Assembly (NCBI RefSeq): GCF_003334815.1
Contig: NZ_QOWO01000121.1
Source: Escherichia coli
GTDB lineage: Bacteria > Pseudomonadota > Gammaproteobacteria > Enterobacterales > Enterobacteriaceae
Strand: one strand, 5' to 3'
Length of the DNA: 691 nucleotides
Shown: one piece after another, positions 1 to 691 of the stretch
How positions within the stretch are numbered: position 1 is the stretch's first letter
Layout of the letters: the number at the start of each line of letters is the position of its first letter
Notes under the pieces: generated by a model
What the model was told of the DNA's origin: nothing
Seen by the model: the letters and a program-made list of their open reading frames with translations, nothing else
Database searches by the model: none
Made by a program: the position numbers and the translations under genes

Positions 1-38
1 GCCAGCGGCAGGCCGCGATGGTCGCAGTGGTACAGGTG
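1..38 (-). other. Probable N-terminal edge of the 'RHS repeat-associated core domain' ([13 protein letters not shown]…), continuing beyond the left window edge
   Basis: Translation of minus-strand codons 218-230 gives [13 protein letters not shown], a YD-like motif (Y-H-C-D-H-R-G-L). In my recollection of E. coli Rhs proteins this immediately precedes …EYDEWGNLL…GLYYNRHRYYDP…DPIGL, the end of the conserved core. Domain assignment is by recollection of the family consensus, not an HMM run. Confidence 0.55.
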
Positions 39-691
39 GATTTTTCGCGCCGGCGTGTACACCGGGTCCATCTGGTTTTGCATCTGCTCCACCGTCAGGC
101 CGCACGATGCCAGCCAGCGGCGGCTTTCCTCACTCACCCGGTCAGCCAGGATTTCACTTTCCAGCCGGTCGAGCATCTGCACCAGCACCGGCGGGAACAC
201 CACACTGCCACCGTCTTCGCCGCCGGACTGCTGAAGGGTATCCGCCAGGCTGCGGCGCTGCGTTTTCGCCAGCTCACCGGTGGCGGTTTCAACCCTGATG
301 AGTGGCGTGAAGCTCCCCGGCTGATAAATCGTCTGGATGCGGGTTCTGTCGTTCTGTATCGTGGTCAGGCGGTCGCCGTCCCAGCCGTACCAGGTCACTT
401 GCGGTTTCCGTGACAGCGACATCCAGCCCGTCAGGTCCCGTTCACGCCGCCATACCCGTTTTGCCACCCTGCGGCCCAGCGGGTCGTAAAGATAGCGACT
501 TTCGACCAGCGGCTCTGCATATTGTGTCCGCGTGTAGTGCACCAGCCGGTGCTGACTGTCGTAATGGTACCGGTGGGTGCGCTCATCATCCGTGCGGATA
601 ACCCCTTCCGGGATGAGGTCGGTTTTCTCTGTCAGCCTGCCGTGACGGTCATACCGGTAAAGATAGTGCGCGTCACGGGCGATACGGTTAT
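1..691 (-). CDS. rhs: Rhs-family YD-repeat protein, conserved core region (internal fragment, truncated at both window edges; codons in frame from + coordinate 689 down to 3, last 2 nt form a partial Ala codon)
   Basis: Seen in sequence: the minus-strand frame is open over the full window (229 codons, no stop), whereas the other frames are interrupted. The translation contains repeated YD-type motifs ([57 protein letters not shown]) matching the Rhs/YD-repeat consensus (Y-x-Y-D-x-x-G-R-L). Third codon positions are strongly G/C-biased in this frame. Recognition from memory, not a database search: the peptide is near-identical to the E. coli K-12 Rhs core (RhsA/B/C type). The paralog (rhsA/B/C/D or an orthologue in another enterobacterium) cannot be assigned from 691 nt of conserved core, so the symbol is the generic family name. 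Confidence 0.9.
354..395 (-). other. YD-repeat motif-encoding segment ([14 protein letters not shown]) within the Rhs CDS
   Basis: Direct translation of minus-strand codons 99-112; Y-G-W-D-x-x-(D)-R-L-T variant of the YD motif. Confidence 0.65.
453..497 (-). other. YD-repeat motif-encoding segment ([15 protein letters not shown]) within the Rhs CDS
   Basis: Direct translation of minus-strand codons 65-79; good match to the Y-x-Y-D-x-x-G-R consensus. Confidence 0.8.
531..569 (-). other. YD-repeat motif-encoding segment ([13 protein letters not shown]) within the Rhs CDS
   Basis: Direct translation of minus-strand codons 41-53; Y-x-Y-D…R-L pattern, degenerate (no Gly). Confidence 0.65.
627..665 (-). 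other. YD-repeat motif-encoding segment ([13 protein letters not shown]) within the Rhs CDS
   Basis: Direct translation of minus-strand codons 9-21; matches the YD-repeat consensus Y-x-Y-D-x-x-G-R-L-(T/I). Confidence 0.75.

Follow-up and report, generated by a model that had tools for sequence, protein, structure and literature searches.

The stretch of DNA analysed here, referred to below as the window, is a 691-nucleotide (nt) piece of Escherichia coli contig NZ_QOWO01000121.1 (assembly GCF_003334815.1). It is virtually certain that the window is coding sequence from the core of an Rhs protein of the RhsA/B/C subfamily. When the six reading frames were compared, the minus strand at offset 2 gave the sole frame open from end to end: a partial coding sequence of 229 full codons at positions 3-689, with two spare bases at each window end that belong to flanking codons. 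The translation matched the NCBIfam model NF041261 (“RHS element core protein”) over model positions 941-1169 of 1261 (E 1.5e-145, 486.8 bits); the whole-protein cutoff of this model, 2,000 bits, is out of reach for a fragment of 229 amino acids (aa). The YD-repeat model TIGR01643 scored 24.1 bits on the translation (cutoff 15.8). The best Pfam match, to RHS (PF03527), was weak (E 0.014, aa 217-229), as were those to RHS_repeat (E 0.044 and 0.63). The Pfam matches to the window alone are too weak to decide its identity; the equivalog model NF041261 was decisive.

The reading frame was confirmed independently of any database, because mismatches to two of the more distant K-12 paralogues are concentrated at the third codon position of the minus-strand frame (100 of 159 mismatches to rhsD and 98 of 157 to rhsE, both ungapped). 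The GC content is 62-65% overall and 76% at codon position 3 of this frame, in keeping with the high GC content of rhs cores relative to the genome as a whole (about 51%). A scan of both window strands against Rfam found no family, only two chance-level matches (E 0.16 and 0.7) far under the gathering scores, and a scan of the window for sigma-70-like promoters on either strand and for intrinsic terminators found none. The mechanical list of open reading frames (ORFs) does contain a plus-strand ORF at 18-413 (131 aa, starting with ATG). There is next to no chance that it or any other antisense ORF is the real gene: the distribution of substitutions agrees with the minus strand, whose translation also has the overwhelming match to the Rhs family, and DNA of 63% GC can be expected to contain long antisense ORFs by chance. 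No RNA family was matched either. Identity as a teneurin, WapA or TcC was considered and rejected, the teneurin YD-shell model PF25023 reaching only E 0.1. Other YD-repeat classes were also ruled out by the 100% identity of the window to E. coli rhs DNA and by a full-length homologue that fits NF041261 from end to end.

To place the window among the paralogues of E. coli K-12, we compared it with the copies in MG1655, all of which align without gaps over 691 nt. Nucleotide identity was 99.42% to ybfO, 99.28% to rhsC, 98.55% to rhsA, 98.41% to rhsB, 77.3% to rhsE and 77.0% to rhsD. The nearest K-12 copy, ybfO (b0703), is not a large rhs gene but an orphan fragment that lacks the 5' part and lies downstream of rhsC and ybfB. 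It has four synonymous nucleotide differences from the window and encodes the identical 229 aa; K-12 RhsC, RhsA and RhsB differ at 2-3 of the 229, and at the nucleotide level 10-11 positions distinguish rhsA and rhsB from the window. These results bear out the initial annotation, which had read the window as Rhs core-only coding sequence near-identical to K-12 (98.4-99.4% to ybfO, rhsC, rhsA and rhsB), lying on the minus strand with the 5' end of the gene to the right of position 691 and its 3' end to the left of position 1.

Matches to the window occur in 3,885 of 5,426 complete E. coli genomes, at a median of five places per genome. The top 30 matching records are all 100% identical and a record about 100 ranks lower is 99.6% identical, which places the exact allele in roughly 30-100 records. 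Several of the top matches are annotated as rhsC beneath the matched stretch. Of the 17,411 places that match the window, two are plasmid-borne rather than chromosomal. In the genome of RM9387 the match is limited to 207 nt in the 3' part of the segment, resembling the short yibJ-type orphan fragments.

We inspected nine loci that carry an exact match (L001, L002, L004 and L009-L014). All nine occupy one chromosomal site, at which kdpFABC, encoded on the other strand, is followed by ybfA, the rhs element, remnants of ISAs1/H-repeat, ybgA and phr. The exact copy is always core sequence joined to a ybfO-type tip and followed by ybfC. In six of the loci this copy is a 5'-truncated orphan with no start codon, annotated as missing its N-terminus, and in the remaining three (L009, L010 and L014) it lies inside a full-length fused gene of 4.2 kb.

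Three arrangements were found at this site. In L001, L002, L011, L012 and L013, a main rhsC gene with ybfB is followed by the orphan with ybfC, and the exact copy is in the orphan only; the main rhsC differs from the window by 1-4 bases in four of these loci, and in L011 it is frameshifted and gave no ungapped match. The gene order is the same in L004, from strain EBJ001, with an exact copy in both main rhsC and orphan. In L009 (7225-11424), L010 (7226-11424, frameshifted) and L014 (4225-8424), a single gene composed of rhsC core and ybfO tip is directly followed by ybfC, and the RhsC tip and ybfB are deleted. The full-length ORF that the initial annotation placed with its start to the right of position 691 corresponds to the three fused genes, one of them frameshifted, and to the main rhsC of L004, but not to the six orphans. 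The gene arrangement that it expected, a tip with a small ORF downstream, is present at all nine loci, where each RhsC tip is followed by ybfB and each ybfO tip by ybfC, the toxin and immunity roles of these genes being putative.

Two of the strains showed further variation at the rhsC locus. In strain H9Ecoli (L012), an IS1B element at 6148-6845 separates ybfB from the orphan and directly precedes the core homology of the latter. In MT102 (L002), unlike in other K-12 relatives, two tips take the place of ybfO/ybfC at 9904-14023: one of “polymorphic toxin type 34”, paired with a yibA-like HEAT-repeat gene in the manner of rhsA, and then a DUF4329 tip paired with yhhH in the manner of rhsB. This orphan array is the outcome of either recombination between loci or an assembly error.

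The main gene and the orphan share a long direct repeat. Self-comparison of L004 and L003 revealed a 1,045-bp repeat common to main rhsC (gene nt 2695-3738) and the downstream orphan, its two copies being 97.2% identical in MG1655 and 98.9% identical in EBJ001. The whole window (positions 1-691) lies in the interior of this repeat and corresponds to rhsC nt 2777-3467; the repeat runs 82 nt past position 691 on the 5' side of the gene and 271 nt past position 1 on the 3' side. The orphan thus has just 82 nt of core homology 5' of the window. In L009, the fused gene matches rhsC over nt 1-3738 and, from nt 2695 onward, also matches the orphan plus ybfC; judged by its sequence, it is what a crossover in the repeat that deletes the RhsC tip and ybfB would be expected to produce.

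The window allele itself is a mosaic of the two genes. It is of the rhsC type at positions 630, 498, 453 and 447, where MG1655 ybfO differs, and of the ybfO type at 222, 88, 76, 60 and 39, where MG1655 rhsC differs. Relative to MG1655 this is a clean rhsC/ybfO mosaic that switches between positions 222 and 447, with an rhsC-type gene-5' part and a ybfO-type gene-3' part. Further patches occur in other copies; for example, the main rhsC of MT102 is of the rhsA/B type at position 93. This patchwork suggests that gene conversion may operate among the paralogous cores.

Assemblies of K-12 descent disagree about the orphan. Four linked synonymous sites differ among K-12-derived assemblies (for example, L001 10001-10691 and L003 9231-9921): compared to the window, the ybfO allele is 99.4% identical in MG1655 and EC600_TC_NKI and 100% identical in C600-p2-3, MT102 and the O16:H48 PG2018005x strains. 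Either gene conversion from main rhsC has occurred in laboratory lineages, or the difference is an artefact of polishing in repeats.

The protein segment encoded by the window corresponds to aa 927-1155 of the 1,397-aa RhsC of EBJ001 and to aa 34-262 of the ybfO-type orphan product, and it can be divided into three parts, all on the minus strand. The first (positions 279-689, window aa 1-137) comprises the last YD-repeat strands of the beta-shell, as judged from TIGR01643 and from alignment with Rhs structures. It includes the sole YD repeat above threshold (positions 525-593, aa 33-55) and aligns with residues 868-984 of Tse5 (8cp6_B; phmmer, E 7e-12) and also with the Salmonella Rhs core structures 8qjb, 8qjc and 8qjd. 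The second part (positions 51-278, aa 138-213) consists of 76 residues that lie between the final strands of the shell and the C-terminal plug, delimited by a gap in the phmmer alignment to Tse5, which ends at query aa 137 and restarts at aa 214. It is about 45 residues longer than the corresponding gap in Tse5 (about 31 residues), and no solved Rhs structure has a segment of that length there. It is kept in all K-12 Rhs cores, with 68% aa identity to RhsD/E compared to 85% for the shell part; on these alignments, the segment is a putative subfamily-specific linker. The third part (positions 3-50) is the start of the plug, that is, of the RHS-associated core (aspartyl protease) region. Window aa 214-229 align with the plug start, and only the first 13 residues of PF03527 fall within the window (aa 217-229, model positions 1-13). 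The window ends before the catalytic DPxGL motifs, which are encoded about 200-270 nt to the left of position 1. From homology and the literature, the window would therefore encode the last part of the cage and what leads up to the plug, and no catalytic or toxin residues.

The RhsC of EBJ001, which contains the identical 229 aa, shows the protein to which this segment belongs when the gene is complete. It scored 2,650 bits against NF041261 (cutoff 2,000) and 134 bits against TIGR01643, with many YD repeats and several matches to PF05593. DUF6531 lies at aa 46-123, the RHS-associated core model TIGR03696 matches aa 1170-1247, and PF03527 matches with E 9.4e-15. There are two DPxGL motifs (DPIGL at 1221 and DPLGL at 1243), spaced by 17 residues, and at aa 48 the conserved motif for N-terminal cleavage, PVNPLLG, which aligns with the first residue of the Tse5 shell chain. 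The RHS-associated core, the DPxGL motif and the further upstream YD repeats on which the initial annotation had staked its choice of protein class are thus all present in this full-length protein. TIGR03696 is found in both the main gene and the orphan of the exact-match loci. The border between core and tip has been described as PxxxxDPxGL, and silent cassettes are known (PMC3150448). The core/tip junction of RhsC is canonical, PLNPISNIDPLGL (L004 12936-12974, RhsC aa 1238-1250), and that of the ybfO type reads PLNPVQYIDSMGL (L004 14810-14848, orphan product aa 346-358).

The window had left it unclear whether the element is linked to a type VI secretion system (T6SS), and the flanks of the nine loci answer this question there. 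Their upstream flanks, covering about 1.6 to 9.2 kb, have no annotated vgrG, no gene for an Eag (DUF1795) chaperone and no separate PAAR gene, and so the element at the exact-match loci is stand-alone. The genes upstream of the rhs start are, in all nine, ybfA and the divergent kdpFABC(DE) operon; YbfA matched no Pfam or NCBIfam domain. The finding agrees with enterohaemorrhagic E. coli EDL933, in which rhsA, rhsB and rhsC lie outside the vgrG islands, the vgrG-linked rhs genes of E. coli belonging to other clades (PMC7216683). The N-terminus of full-length RhsC (MSGKPAARQGD...) matched the Pfam PAAR_motif only at aa 2-20 (model positions 51-69 of 70, E 0.24) and the PAAR-like spike-tip protein SalCis10 at aa 2-29 (E 0.059), both below threshold. 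By this comparison it would be at most a PAAR vestige. The stretch before PVNPLLG (L004 9225-9370, aa 1-48) is ~47 aa long and contains a literal PAAR tetrapeptide; no transmembrane or pre-PAAR region is evident in it.

Taken together, the window is very probably an ordinary internal piece of Rhs core from a core copy at the rhsC locus that is joined to a ybfO-type tip, in either an orphan or a fused gene. The narrower claim, that the ybfO-tip-linked copy at the rhsC locus is the source of the window, we consider likely. Of the two, the orphan is roughly twice as probable as the fused gene. The source copy would be a silent orphan cassette lacking the 5' 2.7 kb and the start codon, as in about six in nine loci, or a full-length gene produced by recombination between main rhsC and the orphan, as in about three in nine. 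If the gene is full-length, published work on Rhs proteins leads us to expect that the shell encloses a variable C-terminal toxin, that the plug cuts at the second DPxGL motif and releases the toxin, and that the small downstream ORF protects the producer. In Photorhabdus Rhs1, the shell encapsulates the toxin, and of the two DPLGL motifs, which have a spacing of 17 residues, the second is where aspartyl autoproteolysis takes place and carries the catalytic Asp (PMC8636562). As DNA, the window would supply homology by which the main gene could swap its toxin tip for that of the orphan, through crossover or gene conversion. Since the exact copy is a start-less orphan in six of the nine loci, the window stretch may not be translated within an Rhs protein at all, and may instead be untranslated DNA that serves as homology for tip switching.

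Several observations weigh against this interpretation. The source copy cannot be told among the paralogues from the window alone, main rhsC and orphan of EBJ001 each being 100% identical to it over 691 nt, and the nine loci are a sample of the estimated 30-100 records. In the ybfO-type junction the second DPxGL motif is degenerate: it reads IDSMGL, in which the Asp is kept and the Pro is replaced by Ser, so that autocleavage of a ybfO-type tip is less certain, although cleavage there is plausible from the sequence. The RhsC tip, the ybfO tip, YbfB and YbfC matched no Pfam or NCBIfam domain, which leaves toxicity and immunity putative. No delivery route is evident for proteins of the RhsA/B/C clade: no vgrG is nearby, and the N-terminus has only the vestigial PAAR match.

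One possibility is that the window derives from the main full-length rhsC, with its RhsC tip and ybfB, and is translated within an expressed Rhs protein. The identical main gene of EBJ001 (L004) and the rhsC annotation of several top matches speak for this. In four of the five other loci with a main rhsC, however, it is the main gene that is off by 1-4 bases and the orphan that is exact; the main gene of the fifth, L011, is frameshifted, and in L004 the orphan is exact too. Moreover, the window has ybfO-type bases at 39-88, where rhsC of the MG1655 type differs. This origin is improbable. Another possibility, and a very remote one, is a different rhs locus, rhsA- or rhsB-like or vgrG-linked, in an unsampled strain or species. 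The rhsA and rhsB cores are 98.4-98.6% identical to the window, mosaic exchange between cores is evident, and the RhsA- and RhsB-type tips at the rhsC locus of MT102, if correctly assembled, indicate that alleles move between loci. Against this, all nine exact-match loci are the rhsC site and the rhsA and rhsB copies differ at 10-11 positions; vgrG-linked rhs genes of E. coli fall in other clades (PMC7216683), and cores of the rhsD/E type are 77% identical.

It could also be speculated that the orphan is not silent and that an internal promoter drives an N-terminally truncated toxin, which would act within the cell as a toxin-antitoxin module with ybfC. In Salmonella Typhimurium, main and orphan rhs genes yield functional toxins from internal promoters and internal start codons, and the P2 promoter sequence is reported to precede Rhs tips in E. 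coli too (PMC7043789). On the other hand, the scan of both window strands gave no sigma-70-like promoter. In the published alignment figure, P2 and the PxxxDPxGL motif share one stretch of about 240 nt (PMC7043789); with the core/tip junction ~271 nt to the left of position 1, P2 would fall outside the window. We regard such expression as rather unlikely; this toxin-antitoxin role would be an alternative but not an exclusive one.

As for the origin of the allele, it is conceivable, though we would put it forward only tentatively, that an exchange between the expressed rhsC and its silent orphan left a direct trace in the window, arising by conversion in laboratory lineages if the assemblies are correct, and that the repeat switches tips fast. 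If so, the 1-kb repeat would be a fast and observable tip-switching device in a clade that has no vgrG neighbor and only a vestigial PAAR. In Salmonella LT2, the orphan toxin can be deployed once the main rhs gene has gained the orphan tip through recombination within a 522-bp, 95%-identical stretch (PMC3967940).

The closest known system is ybfO of K-12, in which the window likewise starts 82 nt into the core homology. The ybfO orphan is 100% identical to the window in other K-12-derived and in wild E. coli assemblies, the MG1655 allele differing at 630, 498, 453 and 447. RhsC (b0700), with RhsA and RhsB of its subfamily, is also close; the full-length protein that carries the identical segment is built of a short N-terminus, DUF6531, YD-repeat shell, RHS-associated core and variable tip. 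K-12 RhsC differs in its tip and downstream ORF, with an RhsC tip and ybfB where the ybfO-type copy has a ybfO tip and ybfC. STM0291/STM0292 of Salmonella Typhimurium LT2 are alike in organization, a full-length main gene being followed by a 5'-truncated orphan with a short common core (PMC3967940). The natural E. coli fusions in L009, L010 and L014 are exactly of the LT2 kind, core fused to orphan tip. The repeat is 1,045 bp at 97-99% identity here compared to 522 bp at 95% in LT2. A further difference from LT2 is that the E. coli fusions have lost the RhsC tip and ybfB by simple deletion, which need not have followed a duplication; the LT2 rhs locus is T6SS-associated whereas the E. coli rhsC locus has no vgrG beside it.

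The literature already describes Rhs cores, orphan cassettes and the switching of tips by recombination, and everything observed here fits published Rhs biology, as the initial annotation had anticipated in calling the system well described rather than novel; the window therefore carries little weight as a discovery. What the analysis adds is that the element is stand-alone at the rhsC locus and that the allele is attached to a ybfO tip, most often in a start-less orphan. For annotation, a 691-nt core read of this kind is not assignable to an expressed toxin gene, because identical bases occur in a start-less orphan, a main gene and natural fusion genes at one locus. These shared bases also make expression or variant calls over the stretch ambiguous. 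The fusions of rhsC core to ybfO tip provide E. coli field examples of the mechanism shown experimentally in Salmonella.

More distant relatives with solved structures are Tse5 (8cp6), the Salmonella cores (8qjb/c/d) and Photorhabdus Rhs1 (PMC8636562), with E values of 7e-12 to 1e-7. The solved effectors and the full-length E. coli homologue have in common the pair of DPxGL motifs, with its spacing of 17 residues, and the PVNPxLG cleavage motif near the N-terminus. Compared to the solved T6SS Rhs effectors, the E. coli core lacks a full PAAR domain, transmembrane helices and a neighboring vgrG or Eag gene, and its linker is about 45 residues longer.

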